NCBI GenBank assembly: GCA_036785375.1
Contig: JAWMAR010000508.1
Coordinates: 1,302,001 to 1,366,000, forward strand
Direction of reading: 5' to 3'
DNA from: Leucoraja ocellata
Lineage: Eukaryota
Length of the DNA: 64,000 nucleotides
Shown here: piece after piece, positions 13,151-58,305 of the stretch
Layout of the letters: each line of letters opens with the position of its first letter
Numbering within the stretch: position 1 is the stretch's first letter
Translations under genes and position numbers: made by a program
Notes under the pieces: model-generated
Database searches by the model: none
The model's input: only the letters and a program-made list of their open reading frames with translations
What the model was told of the DNA's origin: nothing

Positions 13151-14030
13151 ACCGAAGTCTGAACGAAATTGCAGCAGTCATACATATAATACAATACAAT
13201 AAAACAACAATAAACACATATTAACATCCACCACAGTGAGTCCACCCAGCATCTCCTCACTGTGATGGAGGCAAAAGTCTTAGGTCTGCAGTCTCTTCCC
13301 TCTGCGCTGGGGCGATACCCCCCCGGGCGATGTTAAAAAACAGTCCCGCGGCTCAAACACCGCGGCCCGGGGTGGTTGAAGCTTCCGCCCACCCAGACCT
13401 GCAGACGCAGCCGCTGGCCCGCGGCCGAACCCCGGACTCAGGCCACCACCGCCAGAACACCGTCCCAGCCGCCCCCACGTGAGTACTGCGACGTCTTCAG
13501 CCTCGGGCTGGGCCGCCCCGACTTGGGCGCCGAACCTCCCCCGGACCGGGCGCCCCGACTTGGGCGTCGCTTCTTCCCCGGGCTGGGCTGCCCCGACTTG
13601 GGCGCCGAACCTCCCTCGGGCTGCCAGCGCCGCACCTTCCCGAGCTCGGCCGCTCCGACGGGAGCCTGGTTCCACCCTCAGGCTGGCCGCCCTCACGGGA
13701 GCGCCCCAACCTCTTCCAGCCCTGAGCCGGACCACCCTCACGGGAGCGAGCTCAGGGTGAGTCCTGACGGTGCTCTGCCTCCGGAGCCTCGAGGTCGTCA
13801 GCTCCATTAGGCCTCAGCGCAGACGGAGGCAGAGAAGGGGAATACGACAAAAAGGTCGTATTCCCCCGCAGGGAGAGACTGCAAACCCCGTTTCAACCCC
13901 CCCCCCCCCCCCCAAAAACACAAACTAAAACCAAAAAACTAGACTAACTAAAACAAAATAAACAACATAAAAAACACAAAACAACGGGACTGCCGGTAAG
14001 CCGCTGCAGCCAGAGCCGCGCTGCCACTCC
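13151..14030 (-). mobile_element. GC-rich non-coding retroposon (copy A; 3' end lost in the gap)
   Basis: Same architecture and hairpins as copies at 22494, 29816, 55491 and 57432; internal ccccgacttgggcg repeats. Confidence 0.65.
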
Positions 14031-14282
14031 GAAAGGAGTGCACAACCTAAAGTTATAAGACGACTTGTTCTATTTGATCCTATTTGATTGTGCATGCCAG
14101 GTTGATGTACAGGTTTGTAGGTGGATTGGCTTGAGATAAATGTAGATTGTCCCTAGTGAGTGTAGGATAGTGTTATTATGCGAGGATCAATGGTCGCAGA
14201 CTCGGTGTGCTGAAAGGCCTGTTTCTGCGCTGTATCTCTAAACTAAACTAAAGCAAAGAAAATTATGAATGGCATAGATATG

Positions 14283-14913
14283 AGTATAGAAGCTGGGATT
14301 GAGTATAGAAGCTGGGATGTAATGTTAAAATTATACAAGGCATTGGTGAGACCAAATCTGGAGTATGGTGTACAATTTTGGTCGCCCAATTATAGGAAGG
14401 ATGTCAACAAAATAGAGAGAGTACAGAGGAGATTTACTAGAATGTTGCCTGGGTTTCAACAACTAAGTTACAGAGATAGGTTGAATAAGTTAGGTCTTTC
14501 TTCTCTGGAGCGCAGAAGGTTAAGGGGGGACTTGGTAGAGGTCTTTAAAATGATGAGAGGAATAGACAGAGTTGATGTGGACAAGCTTTTCCCTTTGAGA
14601 ATAGGGAAGATTCAAACAAGAGGACATGACTTCAGAATTAAGGGACAGAAGTTTAGGGGTGATATGAGGGGGAACTTCTTTACTCATAGAGTGGTAGCGG
14701 TGTGGAATGAGCTTCCAGTGGAAGTGGTGGAGGCAGGTTCATTGGTGTCATTTAAAAATAAATTGGATAGGCATATGGATGAGAAGGGAATGGAGGGTTA
14801 TGGTATGAGTGCAGGCAGGTGGGACTAAGGGGGGGAAAAAGTTGTTCGGCACGGACTTGTAGGGCCGAGATGGCCTGTTTCCGTGCTGGAATTGTTATAT
14901 GGTTATATGGTTA
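14283..14913 (+). mobile_element. CR1-A 3' fragment
   Basis: ORF 14265-14828 RT C-terminus; GGTTATAT tail. Confidence 0.9.
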
Positions 14914-15957
14914 TAGATAGGGTAGACAGCCAGAACCTTGTGTTGCCTGGGTGGAAATATCAAAGACTTGAGGGCTTAGTTTTAAGTTGACAGGGGCAAG
15001 TTTTCTATGCATATAGTGAGGGTCTCAGGGACATGCTAGAGGCAGAAAACATCTTCCAGATGTTGGGCGAGTCCAGAACCAGGGGCCACGGTTTAAGAAT
15101 AAGGGGTAAGCCATTTAGAACGGAGATGAGGAAACACATTTTCTCACAGAGAGTTGTGAGTCTGTGGAATTCTCTGCCTCAGAGGGAGGTGGAGGCTGGT
15201 TTTCTGGATACTTTCAAGAGAGAGCTAGATAGGGCTCGCTATATTTAAGAGGGAGTTAGATGTGGCCCTTGTGGCTAAGGGGATCAGGGGGTATGGAGAG
15301 AAGGCAGGTACAGGATACTGAACCTGCACCGCCATTCAATATGATCATGGCTGATCATCCAACTCAGTATCCCATCCCTGCCTTCTCTCCATACACCCCA
15401 GATCCCTTGAGCCACAAAGGCCACATCTAACTCCCTCTTAAATATACCCAATGAACTGGCCTCAACTACTTTCTGTGGCAGCGATTTTTTCTCATTTCGG
15501 TCCTGAAATACTTACCCCTTTTCCTTAGACTGTGTGACCCCTTGTCCTGGACTTCCCCAACATCGGGAACAATCTTCCTGCATCTAGCTGGTCCAACCTC
15601 TTAAGAATTGTGTAATATTATATAAGCAGTGCTTTAGTTAAGAGGGGCAGTGCTTTAGTTAAGGTACAGTGGGTTAAAGGGGCAGTGCTTTAGTTAAGGT
15701 ACAGTGGGTTAAAGGTGCAGTTCTTTAGTAAAGGTACAGTGAGCCAAGGGTACAGTGGGTTAAAGGTACAGTTCTTTAGTAAAGGTACAGTGAGCCAAGG
15801 GTACAGTGGGCTAAAGGTACAGTGCTTTTTGTTTATATAATAAAGGTGCAGTTTAAAGGTCACGAGGGAGCAGCTGTTGTGAGTCAGATACCTGCTGATT
15901 TCTCCCAGCAGTTTCTATTGTGTTATACTGGTATCAGATCCAGGGTAATGCGGGAGA

Positions 15958-16889
15958 ATGACAGTCAGAGCAGTATACTGTTCTGGATGTCAGATGTGGG
16001 AGGTCATGGTTTCGGATGGCCCTCCGGACATCCACATCTGCACCAGGTGCAGCGAGATGGGGCTCCTAAGGGACCGTATTAGGATCCTGGAGCAGCAGCT
16101 CGATGACCTCGCTCTGATCAGGGAGAGTGAGGAGGTCATAGAGGGGAGTTATAGAGAGGTGGTCACTCCAAAACCACGGGAGAGAGACATGTGGGTCACG
16201 TTAAGGAAGGGCAAGGGGCAGAGGCAGGAACGGGTGAGTACTCCAATGTCGGTACACCTCGCAAGTAAGTACTCCTGTTTGAGTACGGATGGGGGTAACA
16301 GCCTACCCGGGGGTAGTGACAGCGGACGGGCCTCCAGCACAGAGACCGGCCCTGTTGCTCCAAAAGCTAGGGAAAAAAGAGGGCCATAGTAATTGGGGAC
16401 TCTATTGTTAGGGGGTCGGATAGGCGATTCTGTGGACGCAGTCGGGAGACCAGGATGGTGGTCTGCCTCCCTGGTGCCAAGGTCTCGGACGTGTCTCAAC
16501 GCATCCAAGATATCCTTAAATCAGAGGGAGAGGAGCCTGAGGTCGTGGTACATATAGGTACCAATGACATAGGAAAAACAAGGGAAGAGGTCCTGAAGGG
16601 AGGATTTAGGGAGTTGGGAGGAGAGTTAAGAAAAAGGACCAAAAAGGTAACCATATCAGGATTACTGCCTGTGCCACGCGACAGTGAGAGTAGGAATGGA
16701 GCGAGGTGGAGGATAAATGCGTGGCTGAAAGACTGGTGCAGAGGGCAGGGATTCAAGTTCCTGGATCATTGGGACTTCTTTTGGGGAAGGTGGGACCTGT
16801 ACAGAAAGGATGGGTTGCACTTGAACCCGAGGGGGACCAATATCCTAGCGGGGAAATTTGCAAAGGCAGCTGGGGAGACTTTAAACTAG
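15958..16889 (+). pseudogene. CR1 ORF1 (Zn-finger plus SGNH/GDSL esterase), frameshift near 16385
   Basis: CSGCQMW..CTRC; VIGDSIVRG, CLPGA, HIGTND, DGLH blocks. Confidence 0.88.
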
Positions 16890-19681
16890 AATGGTTGGGG
16901 CGAGGGACTCAAATAGCGAAAGGTAGTAGACAGAATGGGAGGCAGGAAGCAGAAATGGGAAGCACTCGGACACAAGAGGAGAAAGAAAAAAAAGGAAATA
17001 AACAGAGAATAAGAGACGGGGGTTTTCTTAAATGTGCATATTTTAATGCTAGGAGCATTGTAAGAAAGGTTGATGAGCTTAGAGTCTGGATAGACACCTG
17101 GAAGTATGATGTTGTGGCGATCAGTGAAACGTGGTTGCAGGAGGGCTGTGATTGGAAACTAAATATTCCAGGATTTCGCTGCTTCAGGTGTGATAGAATT
17201 GGAGGGGCAAGAGGTGGAGGTGTTGCATTGCTAGTCAGGGAAGATATTATAGCAGTGCTTTGGCAGGATAGATTGGAGGGCTCATCTAGGAAGGCTATTT
17301 GGGTGTAATTGAGAAGTGGGAAAGGTGTAGCAACTCTTATAGGGGTGTATTATAGACCGCCAAACGGGGAACGAGAATTGGAAGAGCAAATATGTAAGGA
17401 GATAGCAGATATTAGTAGTAAGCACAAGGTAGTGATTGTGGGAGATTTCAACTTTCCACACATAGACTGGGAAACACATTCTGTAAATGGGCTGGAAGGG
17501 TTGGAGTTTGTAAAATGTGTGCAGGATAGTTTTTTGCAGCAATACATAGAGGTACCTACTAGAGGAGGGGCAGTGCTGGACCTCCTGTTAGGAAATGAGA
17601 TGGGACAGGTGGCGGAGGTATGCGTTGGGGAGCACTTCGGGTCCAGTGATCACAATACCATTAGTTTCAAGATAATTATGGAGAGGGTCAGAACTGGACC
17701 TAGGGTTGAGATTTTTGATTGGAGAAAGGCTAACTTTGATGAGATGCGAGATGATTTAAAAGGAGTGAACTGGGACATTTTGTTTTATGGGAGATAAAAA
17801 GAGGGAGATCTACAATAATTATAGGCAGCATGAAGTAAATGAGGTGCTTGAGGAGTATAAGGAATGTAAAAAGAATCTTAAGAAAGAAATTAGAAAAGCT
17901 AAAAGAAGATATGAGGTTGCTTTGGCAAGTAAGGTGAAAGTCAATCCACTATTAATAGCAAAAGGATAACGAGGGATAAAATTGGTCCATTGGAGAAACA
18001 GAGTGGACAGCTATCTGCAGAGCCAAAAGAGATGGGGGAGATATTGAACATTTTTTTTTCTTCGGTATTCACCAAGAAGAAGGATATTGAATTATGTGAG
18101 GTAAGGGAAACTAGTAGAGTAGCTATGGATACTATGAGGTTCAAAGTAAAAGAAGTACTGACACTTTTGAAAAATATAAAAGTGGATAAGTCTCCAGGTC
18201 CTGACAGGATATTCCCTAGGACATTGAGGGAAGTTAGTGTAGAAATAGCCGGGGCTATGACAGAAATATTTCAAATGTCATTAGAAACGGGAATAGTCCC
18301 CGAGGATTGGCGTACTGCGCATGTTGTTCCATTGATTAAAAAGGGTTCTAAGAGTAAACCTAGCAATTATAGACCTGTTAGTTTGACTTCAGTGGTGGGC
18401 AAATTAATGGAAAAGATACTTAGAGACAATATATATAAGCATCTAGATAAACAGGGTCTGATTAGGAACAGTCAACATGGATTTGTGCCTGGAAGGTCAT
18501 GTTTGACTAATCTTCTTGAATTTTTTGAAGAGGTTACTAGGAACATTGACGAGGGTAAAGCAGTGGATGTTGTCTATATGGACTTTAGTAAGGCCTTTGA
18601 CAAGGTTCCTCATGGAAGGTTGGTTAAGAAGGTTCAACTGTTGGGTATAAATGCAGGAATAGCAAGATGGATTCAACAGTGGCTGAATGGGAGAAGCCAG
18701 AGGGTAATGGTGGATGGCTGTTTATCGGGTTGGAGGCAGGTGACTAGTGGGGTGCCTCAGGGATCTGTGTTGGGTCCTTTGTTGTTTGTCATGTACATCA
18801 ATGATCTGGATGAAGGTGTGGTAAATTGGATTAGTAAGTATGCAGATGATACCAAGATAGGGGGTGTTGTGGATAATGAAGAGGATTTCCAAAGTCTACA
18901 GAGTGATTTAGGCCATTTGGAAAAATGGGCTGAAAGATGGCAGATGGAGTTTAATGCTGATAAATGTGAGGTGCTACACCTTGGCAGGACAAATCAAAAT
19001 AGGACGTACATGGTAAATGGTAGGGAATTGAAGAATACAGTTGAACAGAGGGATCTGGGTATAACCGTGCATAGTTCCTTGAAGGTGGAATCTCATATAG
19101 ATAGGGTGGTAAAGAAAGCTTTTGGTATGCTAGCCTTTATAAATCAGAGCATTGAGTATAGAAGCTGGGATGTAATGTTAAAATTGTACAAGGCATTGGT
19201 GAGACCAAATCTGGAGTATGGGGTACAATTTTGGTCGCCAAATTATAGGAAGGATGTCAACAAAATAGAGAGAGTACAGAGGAGATTTACTAGAATGTTG
19301 CCTGGGTTTCAACAACTAAGTTACAGAGATAGGTTGAATAAGTTAGGTCTTTATTCTCTGGAGCGCAGAAGGTTAAGGGGGGACCTGATAGAGGTCTTTA
19401 AAATGATGAGAGGGATAGACAGAGTTGATGTGGACAAGCTTTTCCCTTTGAGAATAGGGAAGATTCAAACAAGAGGACATGACTTCAGAATTAAGGGACA
19501 GAAGTTTAGGGGTAATATGAGGGGGAACTTCTTTACGCAGAGAGTGGTGGCGGTGTGGAATGAGCTCCCAGTGGAAGTGGTGGAGGCAGGTTCATTGGTA
19601 TCATTTAAAAATAAATTGGATAGGCATATGGATGAGAAGGGAATGGAGGGTTATGGTACGAGTGCAGGCAGGTGGGACTAA
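16890..19681 (+). pseudogene. CR1 ORF2 (AP endonuclease plus RT); stop at about 17306, deletions at about 17790 and 17945
   Basis: YFNARS, SETW, GDFN, SDH; [12 protein letters not shown]; lesions seen by comparison with the intact copy at 58444-61391. Confidence 0.92.
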
Positions 19682-19815
19682 GGGGAAAAAAAATTGTTCG
19701 GCATGGACTTGTAGGGCCGAGATGGCCTGTTTCCGTGCTGTAATTGTTATATGGTTATATGTTATATGGTTATATCCCCCCTCTATCACGTTTAAATTTT
19801 TTCGTTTGTCTTTAG

Positions 19816-20097
19816 ATGCTCCACGGATTCAATCAATCACTTCCCCCGACAACGTGAATAATTCCGGAGTCAATGTAAAGGAAGGAAACTCTGTAGAGTT
19901 CCTCTGCTCCGTTCAGAGTTTCCCAGCATCTAACCTGACGTGGATACATCTCGATGCCACACTGAACACAACAGGATCCAGCAACGAGCTGTGGTTGAAA
20001 ATCCTTCAAGTGACTCGGCAGGACGCTGGGGACTATGAGTGTGTGGCGGCGAATGAGCATGGGACAGGGAAGGGGAATGTGACCCTCATTGTAGAAT
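19816..20097 (+). CDS. Siglec-like gene 1: second C2/I-type Ig exon
   Basis: gtctttag|AT GCT CCA; YAPRI..EGNSVEFLCSVQSFPASNLTW..DAGDYECVAANEHG..VTLIVE; donor GAAT|gtgag; 282 nt. Confidence 0.93.
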
Positions 20098-22493: not shown

Positions 22494-23202
22494 AAGATTC
22501 AAGATTCAAGATTCAATTTATTTGTCATTTGGACCCCTTGAGGTCCAAACGAAATGCCGTCAAAGCCCCCGGCTGGCGATGGCGATTGTCCCGCGGCCAT
22601 TAAAGCCACGCCGGGTGCTGCAAGGTCGCACACCGGTCTTGATGTTGGAGCCCCCGGCGTGCGCACGCAGAGTCCCGCAGCCATTCCAAGCCTCGCGGGG
22701 CGGTGCTGTAAGGCCCCGCTCCAGGAGCTCTTCGACCCCGCAACTCGGGCGGGAGAAGTCGCCGTTGCGGGTGCCCTGAAAAGCGGTCTCCCTCCAGGGA
22801 CCCGCGGGCTCCCGGTGCTGCCGTCCGCCAGACCCGCAGTTGCAGCCTCCGAATCTCCGGAGGTCGGGCCGTAGCAGCAGCAGCGCTCCACCACCGCTCC
22901 ACCCGCTCTGGACTCGGCCAGCTCCGCGACGGTGAGGTGAGTCGTCGGCACCAGAGCCCCCGGTCTTCCTGTTGGAGGCCGCTCCTCGTTGCAGCCCCAA
23001 CGACAACGGAGACCCAACAAAGAAAAGGTCGGTTCTCCCGTGCAGGGAGAGATTTAAAAGTTACCCCCTCCCTCCCACCCCACCCCCACCCCCCACACAC
23101 ACACATCAACAAAAAAATAACAAAAACTACATAAAAACATAGACAAAAAATAATAAAAACGCAGACGGGCTGCAGAGGCCGCTGCTGACGAGAGTCGCGC
23201 CG
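22494..23202 (-). mobile_element. GC-rich non-coding retroposon (copy B) with Rex1-like (TTGAATC)n tail
   Basis: Close match to 29816-30675 but with an internal ~140-nt deletion; short TSD cggtc. Confidence 0.75.
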
Positions 23203-24620: not shown

Positions 24621-26600
24621 TCATCGCAAAAGGATTTGAGTCTAGGAGCAGGGAGGTTCTACTGCAGTTGTACAGAGTATTGGTGAGACCACACCTGGAG
24701 TATTGCGTACAGTTTTGGTCTCCTAATCTGAGGAAAGACATTATTGCCATAGAGGGAGTACAGAGAAGGTTCACCAGACTGATTCCTGGGATGGCAGGAC
24801 TTTCATATAATAATAATAATAATTGTATTTATAAAGCACTTTAAACAACTGCAGTTGCCACATAGTGCTGTACATGAGAACTCATAACCATATAACCATA
24901 TAACAATTACAGCACGGAAACAGGCCATCTCGGCCCTACAAGTCCGTGCCGAACAACTTTGTTTCCCCTTAGTCCCACCTGCCTGCACTCATACCATAAT
25001 CCTCCATTCCCTTCTCATCCATATGCCTATCCAATTATTTTTAAATGATACAAGATACAAGATACAAGATACAAGATAAATTTAATTCTCACGTGTGCCA
25101 GATGGCACAGTGAAATGAATTCCCATACAGCCATACAATAAAAATAAACAGGACTCAACACAATATAGAATTCAACACAAAACATCCCCACACAGCAGAA
25201 CCAGTTTCCCACTGTGTGGGAAGGCACCAAAGTCAGTTCATTGATACCAATGAACCTGCCTCCACCACTTCCACTGGAAGCTCATTCCACGCCGCTACCA
25301 CTCTCTGAGTAAAGAAGTTCCCCCTCATATTACCCCTAAACTTCCGTCCCTTAATTCTGAAGTCATGTCCTCTTGTTGGAATCTTCCCTATTCTCAAAGG
25401 GAAAAACTTGTCCACATCAACTCTGTCTATCCCTCTCATCATTTTAAAGACCTCGATCAAGTCCCCCCTTAACCTTCTGCGCTCCAGAGAATAAAGACCT
25501 AACTTATTCAACCTATCTCTGTAACTTAGTTGTTGAAACCCAGGCAACATTCTAGTAAATCTCCTCTGTACTCTCTCTATTTTGTTGACATCCTTCTTAT
25601 AATTGGGTGACCAAAATTGTACACCATACTCCAGATTTGGTCTCACCAATGCCTTGTACAATTTTAACATTACATCCCAGCTTCTATACTCATGGACAAG
25701 AAGTTATTACAAACCATTAAAAACTGTAAAACAAAGGACTATAAAACAGTAAAAAAGTCATTAAAAGCACTAAAAACAGGAGCAATGTCTCAGACAGTAT
25801 CGAAAAGCCAGAGAATAAAAATGAGTTTTTGGGGTGCACAAAATTGCTGGAGAAACTCAGCGGGTGCAGCAGCATCTATGGAGCGAAGGAAATAGGCGAC
25901 GTTTCGGGCCGAAACCCTTCTTCAGACTGATGGGGGGTGGGGGGGGGGGGGGGAGAAGGAAGGAAAAGGGGAGGGGGAGGAGGAGGAGCCCGAGGGCGGG
26001 CGGATAGGAGGGTGGGAGGAGACAGCTCGAGGGTTAAGGAAGGGGAGGAGACAGCAAGGGCTAGCAAAATTGGGAGAATTCAATGTTAATGCCATCCGGA
26101 CGCAAGGTCCCCAGGCGGAATATGAGGTGCTGTTCCTCCAATTTCCGCTGTTGCTCACTCTGGCAATGGAGGAGACCCAGGACAGAGAGGTCGGATTGGG
26201 AATGGGAGGGGGAGTTGAAGTGCTGAGCCACCGGGAGGTCAGGTTGGTTATTGTGGTCTGAGCGGAGGTGTTCGGCGAAACGATCGCCCAACCTCCGCTT
26301 CGTCTCCCCGCTGTAAATCAGCTGACATCTAGAGCAGAGGATGCAGTACATGAGGTTGGAGGAGATGCAGGTGAACCTTTGTCAGAGTTTTTAGGGTGGA
26401 TTTGAAGATGGACAGTGAGGGGGCCTGTCTGATGTGCAACGGCGGGGTGTTCCAGAGTGCCGGAGCAGCAACAGAGAAGGCTCTATCCCCTCTGAGCTTC
26501 CGCTTAGACCTTGGTACCTCAAGGAGCAGCTGATCAGCTGACCTGAGGCACCAGGCAGGAGAGTATGGGTGGAGCAGCTCAGAGAGGTAAGGCGGGGCTT
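24621..26600. mobile_element. Nested TE stack: CR1-B, L2 (-), CR1-A (-, 24886-25692), short retroposon tail (25048-25245), Penelope (-, 25833-26385)
   Basis: L2 RT end LRSADQLLLEVPRSKRKLRGDRAFSVAAPALWN on the minus strand with (TTA)n tail; TSDs actcat and gagttttt; GIY-YIG ORF 26061-26351. Confidence 0.8.
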
Positions 26601-29480: not shown

Positions 29481-29815
29481 CTATACTCAAATCCTTTTGC
29501 TACGATGGCCATCTTCTGGGCTGAAGGGCTGAAGGGCCTGTTTCCACGCTGCATCTGCACTGTACTCTAAACTAAATAAAACGGACTTATTGAGTGACTC
29601 CAGCTTTTGTGTCTATCATTGGTTTTAAGCCAGCATCTGTGTCCCTCCTTCAACTAAATTCACCCTCTTGACCGTAAACCCTCGTGATAACAGACCATAT
29701 CATGAGCGATTTTAGTTCTGTCAGACGGACTTGCTCACTAATGTCGATGCTTTTGCACCGCCTCCCTCTGCCACCTCTAGGTATGATATGAATATTGATT
29801 TCTCTAACTTCAAGA

Positions 29816-30675
29816 TTCAAGATTCAAGATTCAATTTAATTGTCATTTGGACCCCTTGAGGTCCAACGAAATGCCGTTTCTGCAGCCATACATTACAAAC
29901 AAATAGACCCAAGACACAACATAATTTACATAAACATCCATCACGTCGCTGTGATGGAAGGCCAAAAAAACTTATCTCTCCACTGCACTCCCCCCCCCCC
30001 CATGTCAGAGTCAAAGTCAAAGCCCCCGGCTGGCGATGGCGATTGTCCCGCGGCCATTAAAGCCACGCCGGTGATGCAAGGTCGCACACCGGGTCTTGGT
30101 GTTGGAGCCCCGGCGTGCGCTCGCAGAGTCCCGCGGCCATTCCAAGCCGCGCGGGGCGGTGCTGTGAGGCCCCGCTCCAGGGCTCTTCGACCCCGCAACT
30201 CGGGCTGGAGAAGTCGCCGTTGCGAGAGCCCTGAAAAGCGGTCTCCTCCAGGGACCCGCGGGCTCCCGGTGCCGCCGTCCGCCAGACCCCAGTTGCAGCC
30301 TCCGAATCTCCGGAGGTCGGCCGCAGCAGCAGCAGCGCTCCACCACCGCTCCACCCGCTCCGGACTCGGCCAGCTCCGCGACGGTGAGGTGAGTCGTCGG
30401 CACCAGAAGCCCCGGTCTTCCTGTTGGAGGCCTCTCCTCGTTGCAGCCCCAACGACAACGGAGACCCGACAAAGAAAAGGTCGGGTCTCCCGTGCAGGAG
30501 AGATTAAAAGTTACCCCCTCCCTCCCTCCCACCCCCACCCCCACCCCCCCCCCCCCCCCCACACACACCACCCCAACAAAAATAACAAACCTACATAAAA
30601 ACATAGACAAAAAACAATAAAAACGCGGACGGGCTGCAGAGGCCGCAGCTGACGAGAGTCGCGCCGCCTACCGCC
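29816..30675 (-). mobile_element. GC-rich non-coding retroposon (copy C, complete) with Rex1-like tail
   Basis: 5' ggcggcgcgactctcgtcagc; 3' aaatgacaattaaa(ttgaatc)n; TSD cttcaag. Confidence 0.75.
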
Positions 30676-30934
30676 TTCAAGTAACTTCAAGTAACCCCTG
30701 CGTTTCCCCTCTCTCCATCCCTCCCCCACCCAAGTTGCACCAGCATCTCGTTCTCACCATAGTAAATCCCTAACAACGGCCTGTTTCCTTTACCATTGTT
30801 ACTTATTTGCATCTTTCATTCATTTCTTCTATATATACATCACCGTCCATATCTCTCATTTCCCTCTACCTGACTCTCAGTCTGAAATGTCACCCCCGAC
30901 CCGAATCCTCCTCTCTAGAGATGCTGCCCATCCC

Positions 30935-32000: not shown

Positions 32001-32031
<31 letters not shown>

Positions 32032-33145
32032 CTTTATTTATAAAGCGCTTTTAGACAACATCAGTTACCACAAAGTGCTGTACATGGGATGTCAACAAAA
32101 AGTTATTACAAACTACTAAAACCATTTAGACCACATGACTATAAAACAGTAAAAATTAAAAAGACATTAAAAGCATTAAAGGGAGTGTTATGCACCCTCA
32201 GCTTTGGGGAACTGCGATACATTTCCCATCATTCTGTGAAAGAACATTTTCATTTTAGCACTAGATTTCCTGTCACAACTTCTGTCTATTTCACTCATAT
32301 ATCAAGAGGTCGTTGGGCCTCTCGAGTTTCTGCCACTTCATAAGTTATAGTGATAATGCTAATATAGAGAGCAAACTCAATGCGAGCATATATTCGATAG
32401 GGCTGTTATACACACAAACAGGGATATTCATAGCAAAAGGATTTGAGTATAGGAGCAGGGAGGTTCTACTGCAATTGTACAGGGTCTTGGTGAGACCACA
32501 CCTGGGAGTATTGCATACAGTTTTGGTCTCCAAATCTGAGGAAGGACATTCTTGCCATAGAGGGAGTGATCAGCCATGATCATATTGAATCGCGGTGCAG
32601 GCTCGAAAGGCCGAATGGCCTACTCCTGCACCCTAATTTCTATGTTTTCTATGTTTCTATGTATATGGGTAGGACAGGTTTGGAGGGATATGGACCAAAC
32701 GTGGGTAGGGTGGGACTAGTGTAGCTGGGACATGTTTGCCAGTGTGGCAAGTTGGGCCGAAGGGCCTGTTTCCAACTGTATCACTCTATGACTATGACTT
32801 TGCATTTCCAATTTTCTACCCTCTATTCCCCAGTCTGAAGAAGGGACTCAATCTGAAATGTTGTTTGTGTAAACACTAGTCCACTCCATCCGCAGATCGG
32901 CTGAGTTCCTCCAGCACTTTGCTTTCTTGTTGAATAAAAGGACTGTTCTGCACCCTCAGCTTTGGGGAACTGTTCGAAACATTTTCCCTTCTATATAAAG
33001 GACATCGTGATTTTTTGCATTAAGTTTCCTGTTCCTACTTCTGTCCACTCCTATATGATGTCTCTGCAACTTCATTGTTTCCATGACTCTTACTCATACA
33101 CTAGGAACAACCTACGGGGGGAAATTAAGATCAGAGCTGAAAGCC

Positions 33146-33305: not shown

Positions 33306-33308
33306 TTG

Positions 33309-35120: not shown

Positions 35121-35677
35121 AGGGTTATTGAATTGTGAATTTGTACAGAGTCTGATCACTGAAATACTTTGTGTATTAAGGTAACTGCAGATACTGGTTT
35201 ACACTGAAGATAGACGCAAAGTGCCGGAGTAACTCAGCAGGACAGGCAGCATCTCTGGAGAGTTAGTTTAGTTTTCTTGCTATTGAGGGAGTGCAGAGTA
35301 GGTTCACCAGCTCTGAAGAAGGGTCTCGCCCCGAAACATCACCCATTCCTTCTCTCCAGAGATGCAGCCTGTCCCGCTGAATTACTCCAGCATTTTGTGC
35401 CTACCTTCAATTTAAACCAGCATCTGCAATTCTAACCTACACATTTTTACTAGGTTAATTCCCGGGATGGCGGGACTGACATATGATGAAAGAATGGGTC
35501 AACTGGGCTTGCATTCACTGGAATTTAGAAGGATGAGAGGGCATCTTATACAAACATATAAAATTCTGAAGGGATTGGACAAGCTAGATGCAGGAAAATA
35601 TTCCTGATGTTGGCGGAGTCCAGAACCAGGGATCACACACAGTTTAAGAATAAGGGGTCGGCCATTTAGGACTGGGA

Positions 35678-36508
35678 TGCTGATGATTGGCCTCATCAGC
35701 AACAACGATGAGCTGGCCTACAGGGATGAGGTCCAGCACTTAGCAGCATGGTGCGCTGACAACAACCTGGCCCTTAACTCTAAGAAGACCAAGGAGCTCA
35801 TTGTAGACTTCAGGAAGTCCAGAGGCGGCACGCACACCCCCATCCACATTAACGGGACGGAGGTGGAACGTGTTTCTAGCTTCAGGTTCCTGGGAGTCAA
35901 CATCTCCGATTACCTCTCTTGGACCCACAATACCTCCACTCTGATCAAGAAGGCTCATCAGCGTCTCTTCTTCCTGAGGAGACTGAAGAAGGTCTATCTG
36001 TCTCCTCAGATTCTGGTGAACTTCTACCGCTGCACCATCGAGAGCATCCTTACCAACTGCATCACAGTATGGTATGGCAACTGCTCTGTCTCCGACCGGA
36101 AGGCATTGCAGAGGGTGGTGAAAATTACCCAAGGCATCACCGGTTCCTCGCTCCCCTCCATTGAGTCTGTCCAAAGCAAGCGTTGTCTGCGGAGGGCGCT
36201 CAGCATCGCCAAGGACTGCTCTCGCCCCAACCATGGACTGTTTACCCTCCTACCATCCGGGAGGCACTACAGGTCTCTCCGTTACCGAACCAGCAGGTCG
36301 AGGAACAGCTTCTTTCCGGCGGCTGTCACTCTACTCAACAACGTACCTCGGTGACTGCCAATCACCACCCCCCCCCCCCCCCCCCGGACACTTATTATTA
36401 TTTATTCAAATCGTTTGCTATGTCGCTCTTCCAGGGAGATGCTAAATGCATTTCGTTGTCTCTGTACTGTACACTGACAATGACAATTAAAATTGAATCT
36501 GAATCTGA
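35678..36508 (+). mobile_element. Rex1/Babar-like LINE 3' fragment nested in a CR1
   Basis: LALNSKKTKELIVDFRK..FLGVNIS..AHQRLFFLRRLKK; (GAATCT)n tail. Confidence 0.88.
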
Positions 36509-42591: not shown

Positions 42592-43004
42592 ATTTTTATT
42601 TTTTTTATTTATTTTTTTGTTTTTTTATTAGAAGTACGGTAAGTTACAATTCTACAAAACACATATATCTTAATACATTTTTAGTACCGCTTCATTTTTT
42701 TTTTTTGAGCTTTAAGAAAAAGGTAGAAGTAAGGAAAGTAAAGAAAGTGCAAGAGAGTCGTGCAGTGCAAGAGTGTAAGGAAAAGAAAGCCCCTTAGGAA
42801 AGAAGTTAGAGAAGGAAGTAAAGTGAGAAAATAGACCCTAGAAAAGAGAGAAAGAGAAAATAGAAACAATCGCTCTATTATAACATTAAACTCCGCAGAA
42901 AGGGGACTACCAACCAAGTCTGTTTTTGTTATTTTACCTCCCGTTACCAGGTCCTGATTCCGCTTATTTATATATTTGTTTTTTTTTTAGATTACTATTG
43001 CACC

Positions 43005-48752: not shown

Positions 48753-48940
48753 TTAAAATCGGTTTCCCTCCGTTAAATCCACGGCGCTTACTGATGACGT
48801 CATCAGCACCGCGACATGAAACTCCGGTAAGTCTTTAAGATCGGTCCCGACCTCCAGACCCGAATTAACGCGAAAAATCGCGATTTTTTCAGCGGAGCTA
48901 AAAGGTTTGCGACTGCTAGCAAAGCATGTCGCCACCGGGA

Positions 48941-51900
48941 CTTGGACCGGAATTGTCTTCAAGCCAGGCCCAGTATTTTGGGCAGGATTGCCTTCCAGGA
49001 CAGGTGACAGATGGATGATGTCACTTATAACCATATAACCATATAACAATTACAGCACGGAAACAGGCCATCTCGGCCCTACAAGTCCGTGCCGAACAAA
49101 TTTATTTTCCCCTTAGTCCCACCTGCCTGCACTCATACCATAACCCTCCATTCCCTTCTCATCCATATGCCTATCCATTTATTTTTAAATGATACCTGCC
49201 AATTAACCTGCCTCCACCACTTCCACTGGAAGCTCATTCCACACCGCTACCACTCTCTGAGTAAAGAAGTTCCCTCTCATATTACCCCTAAACTTCTGTC
49301 CCTTAATTCTGAAGTCATGTCCTCTTGTTTGAATCTTCCCTATTCTCAAAGGGAAAAGCTTGTCCACATCAACTCTGTCTATCCCTCTCATCATTTTAAA
49401 GACCTCTATCAGGTCCCCCCTTAACCTTCTGCGCTCCAGAGAATAAAGACCTAACTTATTCAACCTATCTCTGTAACTTAGTTGTTGAAACCCAGGCAAC
49501 ATTCTAGTAAATCTCCTCTGTACTCTCTCTATTTTGTTGACATCCTACCTATAATTGGGCGACCAAAATTGTACACCATACTCCAGATTTGGTCTCACCA
49601 ATGCATTGTACATTTTTAACATTACATCCCAGCTTCTATACTCAATGCTCTGATTTATAAAGGCTAGCATACCAAAAGCTTTCTTTACCACCCTATCTAT
49701 ATGAGATTCCACCTTCAAGGAACTATGCACGGTTATACCCAGATCCCTCTGTTCAACTGTATTCTTTAATTCCCTACCATTTACCATGTAATTCCCTACC
49801 ATTTACCATGAAAATGGTAGGGAATACCTTCATCCAGGTTTAACTCATTTGTGCAGTACAGACTTTCAGAACAGCAATTTTTTGTTACGGTCTAACTATT
49901 GTTCTATAGGAGCTTCCTATAAAATGGTCACATGGCATGCATCGACCTCAAAGATGCATACTATTCGATGTCTATTCACTAAGAACAGGAGATATTTGAA
50001 GTTTAACTGGATGGCATAGCTCTGCCAAATGGGTTGACATCAGCTCCTAGACTATTGACGAAACTACGGAAAGCAATTCTGGGTCTACAAAGGTCTCAGA
50101 ACCACATAGTAATGGCATATTTGGAGGACATTTTCATTTTGGAGTCACCAAGAATTGGCAGAAGCAAACCAAAACCCTGATTGAAAGACTTGGTTACCTC
50201 ATCCATCCAGTTAAATCAAAATTGACACCTGCAAGGGTAATTGATTACCTAGAATTTACTATCAAAAACAGTAAATACGTTGGTGACTTTGCCTAGGGGC
50301 AAACAACAATATTTAATTAAGCCTGCTATGACCTGATAGTCAAATTCTAGCCATCTATCAGGCAAACAGCGAGTGTAATTTGCAAATAGTAGCTGCATTC
50401 CCAGTAGTATGGGCTTTTGCATTACCAGAACTTACAGCAAGCAAAGGAACGAACACTCAGATTACATGCAGAGAGTGGTGAATATCTGAAATTCTCTGCC
50501 ACAGACGGTAGTTGAGGCCAGTTCATTGGCTGTACTTAAGAGGGAGTTAGATGTGGCCCTTGTATCTAAAGGGATCAGGGGATATGGAGAGAAGGCAGGT
50601 ACAGGATACTGAGTTGGATGATCAGCCCTGATCATAATGAATGGCGATTAGTGCAGGCTCGAAGGGCCGAATGCCTACTCCTGCACTTATTTTCTATATT
50701 TCTATGATTGTAGTCATGTCTTGTCTTTCTGCTGACTGTATTTAACATGCGACAACAAGCTTTTCTCTGTAGACGTAATGAACTCAATTCCTTGTATTTA
50801 ACTATTGAGTCCAGTTGGTTATAACCACTGTGACCTGTGGTCATATGGTGAAATGGTTTATTCCCTTCTGGGCCTGCCTTCCATTCGTAAGATCACAAGT
50901 TTGTAAACCATCATAATCAGAGGTGACCTCATAATGTGCCTGGCCGGTGACCTCACAGTGAACTGCATCTGTAACCATGAGAGACGGGCTCCATTTCATC
51001 TGTCAATTTGAAGTGGGTGCACCAAACCCATTCTGCCAGGCATTGAAACAGCCGGCAGCTACTAGAGGTCGAAACTCTAACCTTCACAGTGTGGATCAAT
51101 AACCCAAGCAAGGAGCTTTGAGAATGCCGGAGAAAAAGGACAACACCAAGCAGACTTACAAGAGGAGATCTAAGGTAGATCTGAATCTGTTAATAGACCA
51201 AGATAAAAGATAGAGTGACTCAGCGGGTCTTATTCTTAAACTGTGACCCCTTGTTCTGGACTCCCCCTACATTGGGAACATAGGGGCGTAGGGCTCTTCT
51301 GCCACCTCTGAGCTTTTCTTTATGGGAGAGAATCCTATCCATCCAGTGACAATCCTGTCTCCAGTCTCCAACATTCCCCCAACCCCCCCCCCCCCCCCCC
51401 CCCCCTTCCCCATCCCCCCAGCCCCTACCCAGCCTCTACCCTCTCTGGACCTTTTTATATCCACTGTTGATGCAATAACTGTCTTCGATTCTCTACTCCA
51501 CTGGCCCACTCCAATGTGAAACGACGAATGTCAGGCAGCATCTGTGGAGAACTCGGATAGATGGCGTTTCACAGAGTGCTGGTGTAACTAATCGGATCAG
51601 GCAGCATCTGTGGAGAACATGGATAGGTGACGTTTCACAGGACAATGAAGCTAGTTGGATTAGGGTGGGGGAGGGATGGAGAGAGAGCTGCCTGTCGCGC
51701 TGAGTTTCTCCAGCATTTTGTGTCTATCTTCAGTGCAAACCAGCATCAGCTGTTCCTGCACATTTTGTCTTGCCCACATTGACCACATCTACACTAGTTC
51801 CTCCTGCCTGCATTTGATCCATATCTCTCCATACCTATCCTGTCCATGTACCCGTCAAGAGTCAAGATTATTTTATTGTCATATATCACAAAATGAACAA

Positions 51901-54873
51901 TTAAATACTGACTTACGATACGATAGAACATTATCTATCCAAGGAGGGAAATTGATCTGCCAACAGTCATAAAACACAAGATAAAGGCGGTCACGGTGAG
52001 CAGCGGTAATGTTGCTCCCTTACACCGAATGCAGCGCCGGAGACCCAGGTTCGATCCTGTTACGGGTGCTGTCTATACGGAGTTTGTACCTTCTCCCCGT
52101 GACCTGCGTGGGTTGTCTCCGAGAACTTCGGTTTCCTCCCATACCCCAAGGACGTACAGGTTTGTAGGTTAATTGGCTTCAGTAATATTGTAATTGTCCC
52201 TAGTGTGTGGAGTAGTGCAAGTGTACGGGATGATACGCAACTATTGTCTATGTTTATATGTCCTGTTTCTGTATTGTACCTCAACATAGAAACATAGAAA
52301 TTAGGTGCAGGAGTAGGCCATTCGGCCCTTCGAGATAAATTCTAGAGAGTATAAACCAAGTCTATCCAGTCTTTCGTCATAAGACAGTCCTGACATCCCA
52401 GGAATCAGTCTGGTGAACCTTCTCTGCCCTCCCTCTATGGCAATAATGTCCTTACTCAGATTTGGAGACCAAAACTGTACGCAATACTCCAGGTGTGGTC
52501 TCACCAAGACCCTGTACAACTGCAGTAGATCCTCCCTGCTCCTATACTCAAATCCTCTACGGCAAGAATGTCTTTCCTCAGATTAGGAGAGCAAAACTGG
52601 ACGCAATACTCCAGGTGTGGTCTGACCAAGACCCTGTACAACTGCAGTAGAACCTCCCTGCTCCTAGACTCAAATCCTTTTGCAATGAAAGCTAACATAC
52701 CATTCGCTTTCTTCACTGCCTGCTGCACCTGCATGCCTACCTTCGATGATTGGTGTACCATGACACCCAGGTCTCGCTGCATCTCCCCCTTTCCCAAGAA
52801 CTAAAGACAGAAATAGTGTGTGAATGGGTGATTATTGGTCAGCACGGACTCGATGGGCTGAAGGTCCTGTTTCTGTATTGTATCTCAAGAGCTAAACATA
52901 TACCTAGTATGTGAATGGGTGATCGGTGGCCGGCACGGACTCGGTGGGCCGAGGGGCCCTGTCTCAGCGCCGCATCTCTGAACTAAACTAAACTAAACTA
53001 AGCTCTCAGCAATTTCTTGTGGTCTTGAGCAGAGCTGGTCCCAAACCAGGATGTGATGCAACATAACACAGTTTTTTCACAATTCATGTGGAGAGGTTGG
53101 TGTGAGTCAATGGAGAAGTGCCGAACTTCCTTCATCTTTTGAGGAAGATGAGACATTAGTCCGCCTTATTGACCACAGCTTCAATGTAGTTGATGCAGGG
53201 TATGTTGTTGGTGATATTTACAGTCATGTGATAGTAGCAGAATTAGGATATTTGACCCATCAAGTCTACTCCGCCATTCAATCATGGCTGATCTATCTCT
53301 CCCTCCTAACCCCATTCTCCTGCCTTCTCCCCATAACCCCTGACACCCGCACAAATAACCATATAACAATTACAGCACGGAAACAGGCCATCTCGACCCT
53401 TCTAGTCCGTGCCGAACACATAATCTCCCCTAGTCCCATATACCTGCGCTCAGACCATAACCCTCCATTCCCTTCCCATCCATATAACTATCCAATTTAT
53501 TTTTAAATGATAAAAACGAACCTGCCTCCACCACCTTCACTGGAAGCTCATTCGACACAGCTACCACTCTCTGAGTAAAGAAGTCCCCCCTCATGTTACC
53601 CATAAACTTCTGTCCCTTAATTCTGAAGTCATGTCCTCTTGTTTGAATCTTCCCTATTCTCAAAGGGAAAAGCTTACCTATAATCTATTCTAATCTATAA
53701 GATCATTTCGTTGTCTCTGTACTGTACACTGACAATGACAATTAAAATTGAATCTGAATCTGAAGATCCCCTCTCAATCTCCTAAATTCTGGTTTATACT
53801 CTCTAGAATTTAGGAAAGTAGGCATGCAGGTGCAGCAGGCAGTAAAGAAAACGAATGGTATGTTAGCTTTCATAGCAAAAGGATGTGAGTATAGGAGCAG
53901 GGAGGTTCTACTGCAGTTGTACAGGGTCTTGGTGAGACCACACCTGGAGTATTGCGTACAGTTTTGGTCTCCAAATCTGAGGAAGGACATTATTGCCATC
54001 GAGGGAGTGCAGAGAAGGTTCACCAGACTGATTCCTGGGATGTCAGGACTGTCTTATGAAGAAAGACTGGATAGACTTGGTTTATACTCTCTAGAATTTA
54101 GGAGACTGAGAGGGGATCTTATAGAAACTTACAAAATTCTTAAGGGGTTGGACAGGCTAGATGCAGGAAGATTTCTCCCGATGTTGGGGAAGTCCAGGAC
54201 AAGAGGTCACAGCTTAAGGATAAGGGGAAAATCCTTTAAAACCGAGATGAGAAGAACTTTTTTCACACAGAGAGTGGTGAATCTCTGGAACGCTCTGCCA
54301 CAGAGGGTAGTCGAGGCCAGTTCATTGGCTATATTTAAGAGGGAGTTAGATGTGGCCCTTGTGGCTAAGGGGATCAGAGGGTATGGAGAGAAGGCAGGTA
54401 CGGGATACTGAGTTGGATGATCAGCCATGATCATATTGAATGGCGAATGGTGCAGGCTCGAAGGGCCGAATGGCCTACTCCTGCACCTAATTTCTATGTT
54501 TCTATGTTTCTAATCAACAATCTATCTATCTCAGCCTTAAAAATATCCACTGACTTGCTCTCCACAGCCTGCTATGGCAAAGAATTCCACAGATTCACCA
54601 CCCACTGACTAAAGAGAGAACTAGTGTGTGAACGGGTGATCGATAGTCAGCGTGGACTCGATGGGCTGAAGGCCTGTATTCGCTCTGTATCTCTAAACTG
54701 AACTGAACTAAATTATATGTTACTAAAGTAAACTTTATTGTCAATTCAATTATGCAACAGTAGTTACACAGAGGATCGAAATTACGTTTCCCCATACTCC
54801 AAATGTGCAAGTAATATTAAAAACACAGCTAGACAACATATCAATAAAAATAGACAATAGACATACATTATTT
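48941..54873 (+). repeat. Direct repeat copy 2 (~5.9 kb) right of the L1
   Basis: Starts cttggaccggaattgtc and ends gacatacattattt, as copy 1 does. Confidence 0.95.
51987..52240 (+). mobile_element. HE1-like V-SINE
   Basis: ggcggtcacggtgagcagcggt..ggttcgatcc..ggagtttgtaccttctccccgtg. Confidence 0.75.
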
Positions 54874-56396
54874 AAAATATTAAAATATTCACAGTATGCC
54901 AAATGTAGCAAAACCTTTGAGGTATTTTAAACAGGGTGCAACAATGAAAGGTGCAATATAGAAAAAGTGCAAATTCCTTACTGGAGACATTGAGCCAAAG
55001 TTATTTTCACAGTTTGTTGTCTTTGTTTGGGTACTGTTCATGGAATTTTCTTAAGTGTGTTGAGTAGTCTGATGGCCTGAGGTAAAAAGCTGTTTTTGAA
55101 TCTGGTGGTTTTGCTCTGCATGCTGCGGTAGCGCTTACCGGAAGGTAGGAGGGTGAACAGTTTGTGTGCTGGGTGGGTGGTGTCTTTGATGATATTGCTT
55201 GCTCTCTTGTGACAGCAAGATGGGTATAGGTCCTGGATTGCTGGTTGGGGTGATCTGGTGATCTTCTCCGCTGTCCTCACCACTCTCTGTAGGGCCTTCT
55301 GGTCAGCAGCAGAGCAACTGCTATACCAGACTGAGAGACTGCTGGTAAGAATGCTCTCAATGGCACCCCTGTAAAAAGTCGTGAGGGCAGAAGGGGGGAG
55401 GTCAGCTCTCCTCATCCGTCGAAGGAAGTGGAGGCGTTGCTGTGCCTTCTTGACTAGGGAGATGGTGTTGGTGGACTATGTCTGATCATCTGGGGCGCTG
55501 TTCTGGCAGCAGCCATGGCAGCAGCGCGTCAGCCTTTCAATTTTATTTTTTATTTTTAGTATGTTTTAAAGTGTGTATTTAGTGGGGTTTTGTGTGTTTT
55601 GTGTGGGGGTGGTATGGGGGTGGGGGGGGTAAGGGGGAAACCGCTTCGGTCGCCTCCTCCATGGAGAGGCGACTTTTTCCAGGTCGCCTCCCGCGTGGCC
55701 TACCATCAAGGATCGGCGAGGTCTTTCCCGGAGACGTGCCCGGGGCTTCAGCGGCAGGCGCAGCGTGGACTCGGCGTGGAGCGGGTGAGCCCTCGCTGGG
55801 GCTCGCCGGACGGGAGTGCTCCATTTCACTGGCCCGGGGCAGCCGGCAGCCTGAAGTCGCAGCCTGAAGCCGCGGTCTGCAGAGTTCCAGCTGCTGCGGC
55901 GTCTACAGCCCGGGATCCGTCGTGGGGGACCCGGGGGAAGAAGAAGCCTCCATTGCCGGCCCGTGGATAACTTCTACCGCGGGCCCGGCATGGACTTACC
56001 ATCACCCCTGGAGGGGAGCTTCGACCGCCGGCCCTGCAGTCTACGGTGCTTCTAGCTGTGGCAGGGACTTTAAATCTCAACCGCCGGCCTGCGGCCTACA
56101 CAATCTTGAAGCCGCGGTCTCCGGTGAGGAAAGACCGATCCTGGACTGGACCCTGGACTCTGGTCCGGTCCACTGGGGGGGGGGGGGGGATGGAGGAGGA
56201 CGGCCAAAAATTTGTGTGCCTTCCACCACAGTGATGAATGCTGTGGTGGATGTTTATGTTACATGTTGTGTCCTGTTTATGCATTTTAGTATTTTGTTAA
56301 CCCATCTTTTCTGCTTTGTATGGAACTGATTTTTAAATTATGTAAAGCACTTTGGGGTCAATGAAAATTGACTATAAATGTGCTATATACATAAAC

Positions 56397-56457
<61 letters not shown>

Positions 56458-56560
56458 CTGTGATGTGCACTCCCAGGAACTTGGTGCTTTTCACAGACTC
56501 CACTGCACTGCCATTGATGGTGAGTGGGGTGTGTGTTGTCTGTTTCTTCCTGAAGTCCAC
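54730..56560 (-). mobile_element. Rex1-like LINE fragment interrupted by retroposon copy D
   Basis: DFRKKQ..INGSAVESVKSTKFLGVHITD|insertion|..FYRGAIESILT..WY..LQRVVRTAEKI. Confidence 0.85.
55491..56456 (+). mobile_element. GC-rich non-coding retroposon (copy D) with L2-like 3' tail and (TTA)n
   Basis: 3' end tgtaaagcactttg..tataaatgtgctatatacataaac(tta)n; flanked by atctg. Confidence 0.7.
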
Positions 56561-56794
56561 AGTTATTTTGTTGTTATTGTACTTGCCTCAACTACTTCCT
56601 CCGGCATCTTGTTCCACATATCCACACAACCCCTCATCAACCTCTGTATGAATAGCCTCTTACTTCAACTTTAGCAATGATCAGCTTAGAACCAACCCTA
56701 AGCTGTTCCTCAGATACCTTCCCTAATTCATGAACCAGGCACCTTGTGGGAGGTAGCCACATGGCAGAACAGTAGCCGTTCATGTCAGTTGAGT

Positions 56795-57152
56795 TTAGTT
56801 TTCTAGTTTAGAGACACAGCGCGGAAACAGGCCCTTCAGCCCATCGAGTCCACGCCGACAATCGATCACCCGTTCGCAAACAAGTTCTGTGTTTAGTTTA
56901 GTGATACTGTGCAGAAACAGGCCCTTCGGCCCATGCTGACCAGTGACCAACGCTATCCTACACACACACACTTCGGACAAATAATTTTTGTTTTACCGAA
57001 GACTAATTAACCTACAAACCCATACATCTTTGGAGCGTGGAAGGAAACCAGATACCCCAGAGAAAATCCACGCAGATCACAGAGAGAACGTGCAAACTCC
57101 GTACAGACAGCACCTGTAGTCAGGATCAAAGTCGGGTCTCTACCGCTGCACC
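56795..57152 (-). mobile_element. HE1-like V-SINE
   Basis: Minus strand gtacggagtttgcacgttctctctgtg; (CTAAA)-type tail. Confidence 0.7.
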
Positions 57153-57431
57153 ATCATGCGCCATCATGTAACTTGGCAAAGATTAGCAGGAGGTCTAACG
57201 ATTGGGAAGCTTTTAAAAACCAAAAGAAGGCAACTAGATTGCTCAGGAGGTCATAAGTGATAGTAGAATTAGGCCATTTGGCCCATCAAGTCTACTCCCC
57301 CATTCAATCATGGCTGATCTATCAATCCCTCTTAACCCCATTCTCCTGCCTTCTCCCCATAACCCCTGACATCTGTACTAATTCATAATCTTTCTATCTC
57401 AGCCTTAAAAATATCCACTGGCTTAACCACC

Positions 57432-58305
57432 AGGTGGCGCTAGCAATGGCTGCCTCGCCAACAGTCTGTCTGTCCCTTCCTGTTTTGCTGTCTGTTTGTG
57501 TGTGTTAAATGTATGTTTTTAGTGTTCTTTAGCTTGTTTTATGTAGGGAGTGGGCGGGAGTTGTGGGAAACGTTTTATAATCACTTACCTCAACGGAGAT
57601 GCGATTTTCTTCCGTATCGTATTTCCGTCCGCACTGCGGTCTAACATCGAGGAGTTGGTGGCATTTGCATGAGACCGACTTCGAGAGGTGTACCCCGGGT
57701 GCCTGCAGGACTTACCATCACGGAGCTTACGATCCCAGTTGGGGTCAAGTTTGGGGCTCCACCCATGGGTGCCTGTGGACTTTAACATTGTGGAGCTTGT
57801 GGTCACTGGTTAGAGACCGACTTCGGGAAACTCCAAACCGCAGGAGCTTCGATCGCCCCGATGCGGGATCTTCCACCGCCCCGACGTGGGGTCTTCCACC
57901 GCCCCGACGCGGGGTCTTCCACCGCCCCAACTTGGGGTCTTCGATCGCCCCGACGCGGGGTCTTCGATCGCCCCAACGTGGGGTCTTCGATCGCCCCGAC
58001 ACGGGGTCTTCCACCGCCCCGTCGCAGGGTCTTCCACCGCCCCGACGCAGGGTCTTCGATCGCCCCGACGCGGGAGCTTCAATCCTCCCGACTGCGGATA
58101 GTTCGATTGCCCCGACCATGGGAGAATAAAAGAGGAAGAAGAAGTTTGGACTTTATTGCCTTCGGTCCCAGTGATGATCGTGGGGAGTCCACTGTGGTGG
58201 ATGTTTATGGTGACTTTTATGTAGTTGTGTCTCTTGTTGCTTTTTTTTGGTTATTCGAACTTCGCAGTACCTTAAATGGTACATGAGACAATAAACTGAC
58301 CTTGA
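57432..58305 (+). mobile_element. GC-rich non-coding retroposon (copy E) with internal 23-bp tandem array (about 57848-58115)
   Basis: 5' gtggcgctagcaatggctg; units gggtcttc(cacc/gatc)gccccgacg; 3' gacaataaactgaccttga. Confidence 0.7.

Follow-up and report, generated by a model that had tools for sequence, protein, structure and literature searches.

What are the GC-rich, apparently non-coding elements scattered through a skate locus, and is the hairpin near their 5' ends conserved as an RNA structure? The question is raised by a 64,000-nucleotide (nt) stretch of Leucoraja ocellata DNA (contig JAWMAR010000508.1 of assembly GCA_036785375.1, positions 1,302,001 to 1,366,000 of the forward strand; hereafter the window, whose own coordinates are used throughout), where a sequence-only reading had proposed five divergent retroposons sharing a covarying 5' hairpin. 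We find that the elements form a real family, richer than first described: six copies, together about 4.5 kb of the 64 kb, with two hairpins, H1 and H3, and tails resembling those of long interspersed elements (LINEs). The account that we favor, with some reservation, is that they are non-autonomous, LINE-dependent retroposons transcribed by RNA polymerase II (Pol II), in which H1 would act on the RNA as a protein-docking or stability element, not as a ribozyme.

One family in four lineages

The copies, labelled E1 to E6, are as follows (TSD, target-site duplication; VNTR, variable-number tandem repeat; ORF, open reading frame).

13151..14030, minus strand: E1, 5' end full-length, 3' end lost in an N gap (12751-13150); internal repeats of 37-38 nt, and the beginning of a Rex1-type terminal stem-loop before the gap
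22494..23200, minus strand: E2, H3 removed by a deletion of ~138 nt; TSD GACCG; Rex1-type stem-loop and (TTGAATC)n tail
29815..30681, minus strand: E3, full length; Rex1-type tail; TSD CTTGAAGTTA, with 6 additional nt at its 5' junction
55493..56455, plus strand: E4, full length, inside a Rex1-type ORF fragment; TSD ATCTG; (TTA)n tail
57425..58314, plus strand: E5, full length; 2-nt duplication TT; Rex1-type tail; VNTR of a 23-nt unit x11.7 at 57847-58116
25052..25241, minus strand: E6, 5'-truncated, within a CR1; H3, T-rich stretch and Rex1-type stem-loop; TSD GTATCA; (TTGTATC)n tail

All five elements first proposed are where they had been placed, but they represent four lineages rather than five, because E2 matches E3 at 92% identity over 660 nt, being itself short of ~138 nt. 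The first inventory had also overlooked H3, the tail types and E6. The proposed layout of GC head, T-tract, G-run and U-loop hairpin is present in all five: runs of at least four T begin at +44 to +53, a motif of four G-tracts starts at +109 to +118 in 5/5, and the 5' arm of H1, which follows that motif, extends to +174 to +196. Further downstream the common order continues with a variable GC-rich or VNTR body, H3, a T-rich stretch, a LINE-type terminal stem-loop and a short tandem tail. G-runs elsewhere in the window (7062, 25932, 36363, 51376) have no H1.

The statement that the middles mostly do not align needs tempering, as E3 and E4 share 100 nt at 70% identity (E 2e-6) and E4 and E5 32 nt at 84% (E 0.012); the bodies are thus not wholly unrelated. 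Tandem arrays occur in E1, E4 (33 nt only) and E5, with none in the E2/E3 body. The GG(C/T)CT(A/C) motif reported downstream of H1 is exact in two of the five elements (E4, E5), but degenerate in the other three. The elements indeed hold no recognisable ORF: stop-free frames of 126-252 amino acids exist, but none of 18 matches Pfam. Protein searches with two E3 frames gave no credible homologue, and one tandem-repeat protein match to an E3 frame was thrown out as repeat-inflated. An apparent excess of full-length copies (5/6 against 0/7) was likewise dropped, since two Rex1-type pieces reach ~850 nt and short tails are easily missed.

Two covarying hairpins

H1 was located in all five elements with an intact 5' part.

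13837..13866, minus strand: H1 of E1, 12 base pairs (bp), U-rich loop
23006..23041, minus strand: H1 of E2, degraded, one mismatch and one G-U
30458..30493, minus strand: H1 of E3, stem as in the sequence-only reading
55666..55690, plus strand: H1 of E4, 8-bp core
57593..57628, plus strand: H1 of E5, 13 bp including two G-U; sense-strand folding only

The stems of E1, E3, E4 and E5 are as they had been written, but that of E2, which had been equated with E3, differs: it reads GGAGAACCGAC/GTTGGGTCTCC, its mismatch being A-G. With the arms of E1, E3, E4 and E5 anchored at the loop, 42 of the 44 stem cells pair; slid registers give 15-24 of 44. Both sides change in 5 of the 11 columns (exact permutation P=8.7e-4). 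The arms have 5-9 of 11 letters in common across the four lineages, yet stem length and position are constant, and the own 3' arm is the most stable duplex partner of the 5' arm in three of the four. Sequence-only profiles from which one lineage was left out returned it as the next-best match in 4/4 trials (E 2e-5 to 6e-3). Sense-strand folding z-scores of the H1 region are -4.7 (E1), -3.9 (E3), -2.4 (E4) and -4.9 (E5), the antisense value for E5 being -0.2. Hairpins with at least 8 Watson-Crick pairs number 98 on both strands of the window; a TTTT loop is found in seven, four of which are H1. A search with covariance model R1 recovered the five training copies and no additional H1. Iron-responsive elements and histone stem-loops, judged by eye, did not fit. 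The proposal of a conserved structured element is thereby upheld for H1, on four lineages only; we take the covariation as good evidence, short of proof, for a probable RNA structure.

E1, E3, E4 and E5 contain a second covarying hairpin, H3, at a distance of 76-206 nt from their 3' ends.

13223..13271, minus strand: H3 of E1, 14 bp, z -3.6
29933..29961, minus strand: H3 of E3, 8 bp, z -2.3
56219..56254, plus strand: H3 of E4, 11 bp, z -4.2
25181..25224, minus strand: H3 of E6, both arms altered at two positions, z -4.2
58159..58205, plus strand: H3 region of E5, homologous sequence with a broken stem, z -0.3

Leave-one-out profiles recovered 4/4 lineages (E 9e-8 to 4e-5), and it was the H3 profile that picked up E6, itself absent from that profile, whose hairpin still folds with changes in both arms. 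One pair reads U-G, U-A, C-G, U-G and A-U across the copies. Two weak profile matches, 1177-1211 and 24764-24798, with E of 0.025 or more, were excluded because they lie at CR1 junctions, and a scan of GTDB with an H3 pattern gave 0 loci.

LINE-type tails and insertion junctions

The 3' ends of E2, E3, E5 and E6 consist of a stem-loop, an A-rich motif and then a tandem repeat of 5-7 nt; they resemble the ends of Rex1-type fragments (36450-36508 and 10226-10292), the likeness to the LINE 3' end being confined to the terminal 50-60 nt. All tails fold a terminal stem-loop, with variable stems. The following pieces bear on the tails.

35665..36508, plus strand: Rex1-type LINE, 5'-truncated, an ALKBH8_N-bearing C-terminus of reverse transcriptase (RT); 3' end matches the tails of E1, E2, E3 and E5
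10226..10997, minus strand: Rex1-type LINE, 5'-truncated, terminal stem-loop like the E6 tail
32003..32085, minus strand: lone tail, 82.6% identity to the E4 tail, no RT or H3 upstream
24807-24875: lone tail, 76.7% identity to the E4 tail

The LINE at 35665..36508 is a candidate for the partner lineage, judging by its 3' end. Pfam ALKBH8_N was found in 4/4 tested 5'-truncated LINE pieces. The long relatives of these pieces, fish RT proteins, combine RVT_1 with ALKBH8_N; a literature search for DUF1891 together with retrotransposons found no paper. In E4, the terminal stem-loop (56338-56398) and (TTA)n differ from the tails of the other copies: beyond H3 the element is by eye like E3 and E6 for a stretch and then takes a different tail, which we assume to be L2-type, no RT being linked to such a tail in the window.

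A GTDB scan with the Rex1-type alignment confirmed one of 75 candidate stretches, contig L001, which is 5'-truncated, lacks H1, and has a Rex1-type RT followed by the same tail type as the Rex1-type-tailed copies. The stretch (L001:1-2893) is filed under a bacterial metagenome-assembled genome yet holds the 3' part of a fish-like LINE; host contamination is likely.

Insertion left TSDs of 2-10 nt in 5/5 testable copies (GACCG in E2, CTTGAAGTTA in E3, ATCTG in E4, TT in E5, GTATCA in E6), E1 being left out of the count as its 3' side is a gap. The junctions were defined by the TSDs together with empty-site homologues, and the target resembles the tail repeat in E3, E5 and E6. LINE-type stem-loops, short tandem tails, TSDs and one 5'-truncated copy agree with the earlier assignment to non-autonomous retroposons.

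Could the scaffold instead be a piece of a LINE, the part from head to H3 being the long 5' untranslated region (UTR) of an autonomous Rex1-type or other element joined to its 3' UTR? We regard such bipartite deletion derivatives as a serious option, at well under even weight; it concerns origin, would turn H1 and H3 into LINE UTR structures, and fits most of the mechanism proposed below. The 3' arm of H3 terminates in ATG in 5/5 copies (e.g. 56243-56258), a possible sign that a LINE 5' UTR finishes there; by eye no conserved peptide is apparent after it. Further, all 5/5 full copies carry a GT splice-donor motif on the antisense strand and none on the opposite one; outside the elements its frequency is 13 per 118 kb. 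In three lineages the motif is located at +261 to +282.

13756-13762, 22936-22942, 30388-30394, 55994-56000, 57583-57589, 57710-57716: antisense splice-donor motifs

The human L1 5' UTR also carries an antisense splice donor; a similar motif is present in the L1-type 5' UTR of the window (48826-48832). All Rex1-type copies of the window are 5'-truncated, covering only residues 759 onward of a 987-residue relative, so that none extends to its 5' end. ORF-less LINE derivatives are known and thought to be Pol II-transcribed, but the portion of Kojima 2018 at hand (PMC5786205) names only RTE, Ingi, Vingi and R2 as sources. Also against a bipartite origin, one 5' part is joined to two tail types, tblastn of 81 named fish RT proteins and 4 window LINE proteins detected no coding remnant in the elements, and the H1 and H3 profiles match no LINE part of the window. 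The 5' part has no match to the L1-type or CR1 5' regions of the window.

Are the hairpins kept as RNA?

Several observations weigh against our reading and are collected here. The H1 covariation comes from four lineages only, picked post hoc and left uncorrected for kinship. On the unedited MAFFT alignment of five copies, which puts the E1 arm in the wrong place, the signal is weaker: 90% of cells pair (reached by 5/500 shuffles), the covariation score is equalled by 7/500 shuffles and the number of both-side pairs by 37/500. E2 folds with a sense-strand z of only -1.5, which is not significant, E1 and E4 fold about equally well antisense, and for the E5 5' arm the 3' arm of E3 is a marginally better partner than its own 3' arm. 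H3 folds (z -2.3 to -4.2) in four of five copies, E5 failing, and its pairing depends on how E6 is anchored: 38/40 (P=0.03) on the loop side, 34/40 (P=0.30) on the outer side. A leave-one-out profile of the 60-nt head found the omitted lineage in only one of four trials. The labels Rex1-type, used for the ALKBH8_N-carrying pieces, and L2-type are presumptive. Finally, E2 (H1 degraded, no H3) and E5 (H3 broken) both inserted with tails, which indicates that the hairpins decayed once inserted, or else that insertion does not strictly depend on their being intact.

The stems might also covary for reasons at the level of DNA, through template-switch repair of quasi-palindromes or single-stranded DNA pairing, with only a promoter sequence under selection. 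The H1 3' arm sequence is repeated upstream in E4 and partly downstream in E1, as template switching would yield, and both the two-sided folding of E1 and E4 and the copies with damaged stems fit that idea. We nonetheless hold it unlikely: stem position and length are constant in four lineages in spite of the diverged arms, and of the six non-Watson-Crick cells of H1 on the sense strand three are G-U and one A-C. Selection on H1 as an RNA structure is, in our estimate, quite probable.

That H1 belongs to a self-cleaving ribozyme, or to a conformational switch governing 5' processing, we consider very improbable. 5' ribozymes are described for several LINE clades (PMC5786205, in part). Rfam gave no match at gathering score in the window, and over E1-E6 only sub-threshold or off-element ones; a strict hepatitis delta virus (HDV) descriptor matched 0/6 copies, relaxed matches being confined to the E2 T-tract, and no hammerhead CUGANGA followed by GAAA, nor any complete core, was found. 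H1 is also internal: since it lies 175-195 nt inside the element, cleavage there would discard the head, which is retained upstream of H1 in 5/5 full copies. The ribozyme suggestion is not supported. The companion idea is a switch with an upstream CTCC tract. The alternative pairing folds in four of five copies (E1-E4) and follows the stem sequence in E4, but it is absent in E5 and, at -7 to -16.5 against -15.5 to -26.5 kcal/mol for H1, is 6-17 kcal/mol weaker in E1-E4, making a weak case.

Transcription and base composition

The elements are likely transcribed by Pol II, as read from their sequence: no Pol III A/B boxes were found at the 5' ends (searched with exact consensus patterns), and the five or more runs of at least four T in the first 260 nt (5-8 per full copy) would stop Pol III. 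Chondrichthyan tRNA-derived short interspersed elements (SINEs) with CR1 or L2 tails are known (PMC3747384, PMC5499810, as far as the parts at hand go), but a decayed tRNA, 5S or 7SL head on an ordinary Pol III SINE can be practically dismissed here, given that ARAGORN (0 hits, in line with the tRNA-less head first described) and Rfam (0) find none, the boxes are lacking, T-runs recur from +44, and the length is 0.7-1 kb.

The element body is CpG-island-like. G+C of the bodies is 64-73%, and the observed/expected CpG ratio over whole elements is 0.80-0.98 vs 0.42 outside. Between E2 and E3, a single element pair, 4 CpG changes were observed vs 4.5 expected without hypermutation after correction for ascertainment; seven neighbouring LINE pairs pooled have 36 vs 21.5 expected (P=0.003). 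Two of the seven likewise lack a CpG excess. A raw CpG ratio of 1.4 vs 6.9 was inflated by ascertainment and is replaced by 0.85 vs 3.9.

A proposed route of mobilisation

The shared order from head through H1, body and H3 to a LINE-type tail, which we regard as firmly established, would be the starting point. The CpG-island-like element would then likely be transcribed by Pol II. In a third step, very probably, the terminal stem-loop would recruit the ORF protein of a partner in trans, Rex1-type for five copies and likely L2-type for E4; two partner types imply past tail exchange downstream of H3. The junctions argue strongly for integration by target-primed reverse transcription, at targets that share microhomology with the tail repeat; this would yield duplications of 2-10 nt and occasional 5' truncation. 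Lastly, selection on source copies may keep H1 and H3 as RNA structures, most likely as binding sites for proteins, which would make the transcript more stable or ease its access to the protein of the partner; for H1 specifically, we see protein docking as an evenly balanced proposition. H1 and H3 would in this manner frame a GC-rich body that changes freely, the tail being exchangeable.

Setting of the copies

The window is dense in LINE fragments. Three immunoglobulin exons (8926-9308, 12389-12694, 19773-20096, plus strand) match CD33-like Siglecs, the best named match among 67 being from Amblyraja radiata (86%). E1 lies antisense in an intron of this CD33-like Siglec gene (8926-20096, plus strand), and its splice-donor motif thus faces in the direction of the gene. 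Other features are listed below.

38204-42592 and 48937-54874: a 4.4-kb segment present twice at ~99% identity, the second copy ~1.5 kb longer; either a giant duplication or an assembly artefact
~42593-48936, minus strand: near-intact L1/Tx1-type LINE between these repeats, ORF1 of 325 amino acids, ORF2 in two overlapping frames
15274-15411: long palindrome of CR1-like pieces, with sub-threshold matches to miRNA precursors
7061-7757 and 63280-63995: a G-rich minisatellite of 20-37 nt, in an array at each of the two places
15949-19776 (plus strand) and 58354-61826 (minus strand): CR1 copies, young and nearly full-length, in which ORF2 is long and intact and a GDSL-esterase piece of ORF1 is present

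Comparison with known systems

A description of the family was not found in the literature searched, which leaves Dfam and Repbase outside, and prior cataloguing is quite possible; the portions at hand of PMC7245038, PMC6274825, PMC5381603 and bioRxiv 2025.06.08.657570 do not describe it, and the curated 'Erep' stingray repeats were, in the part of their description at hand, picked as >2 kb. If our reading is correct, ORF-less derivatives would reach past the four clades named in the available part of PMC5786205. SINE-like parasites are almost always traced to a Pol III gene that they borrowed or to a LINE that suffered deletion; a family with RNA structure as its only bond, and with exchangeable tails of two LINE clades, would broaden this view. 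H1 would then offer a well-defined handle on what, apart from a tail, enables a Pol II transcript without a protein of its own to capture a LINE RT. Copies that are perhaps free of methylation and equipped with antisense splice donors could also give rise to promoters and exons in genes of cartilaginous fish.

The SVA and LAVA elements of hominoids are composite and non-coding, presumably Pol II-transcribed, with a low-complexity 5' tract and a GC-rich VNTR body, and are mobilised in trans. The skate elements are alike in their composite non-coding build, low-complexity 5' tract, presumed Pol II transcription and presumed mobilisation in trans, and in a GC-rich body that holds tandem arrays in E1, E4 and E5, but have no detected Alu or endogenous retrovirus part, hairpins that flank the body, and a stem-loop tail with tandem repeats; they have no L1-type poly(A) tail. 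Bipartite non-autonomous LINEs share the lack of an ORF, the LINE 3' end, the absence of a small-RNA head and presumed Pol II transcription (PMC5786205, in part), whereas the skate elements have Rex1-type and likely L2-type tails, two tails on one scaffold, and no parent 5' UTR identified.

The CORE, V and Deu SINE superfamilies, represented in chondrichthyans by HE1, SacSINE1 and CmiSINEs, likewise combine an internal module with exchangeable LINE tails (PMC5499810, PMC3747384); unlike the skate elements, they start with a tRNA or 5S head and contain Pol III boxes, the chondrichthyan SINEs being tRNA-headed in the parts of these sources at hand. Avian SINEs with a GC-rich head of unknown origin also lack a small-RNA source, but there bipartite RTE sequence follows the head instead of a Rex1- or L2-type tail (PMC7245038, in part).

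Similar in size, abundance and divergence, by description only, are the CoeG-SINEs of the coelacanth, of ~1.0-1.4 kb, with 205 shared insertions in 5.7 Mb and copies without a second match at 80/80; they differ in being termed tRNA-SINEs, and no LINE-tail similarity is reported for them (PMC4255032). Many CpG-island transposable elements are reported from the coelacanth (PMC3787270, in part). Tentatively, as a speculation that we put well below even chances, the skate elements may belong to an old, undescribed superfamily of Pol II-driven, SINE-like retroposons, possibly shared with the CoeG-SINEs, whose hallmark is an RNA scaffold of two hairpins in place of a small-RNA head, and which swaps tails to parasitise LINEs of different clades and carries a methylation-resistant CpG island to new sites.

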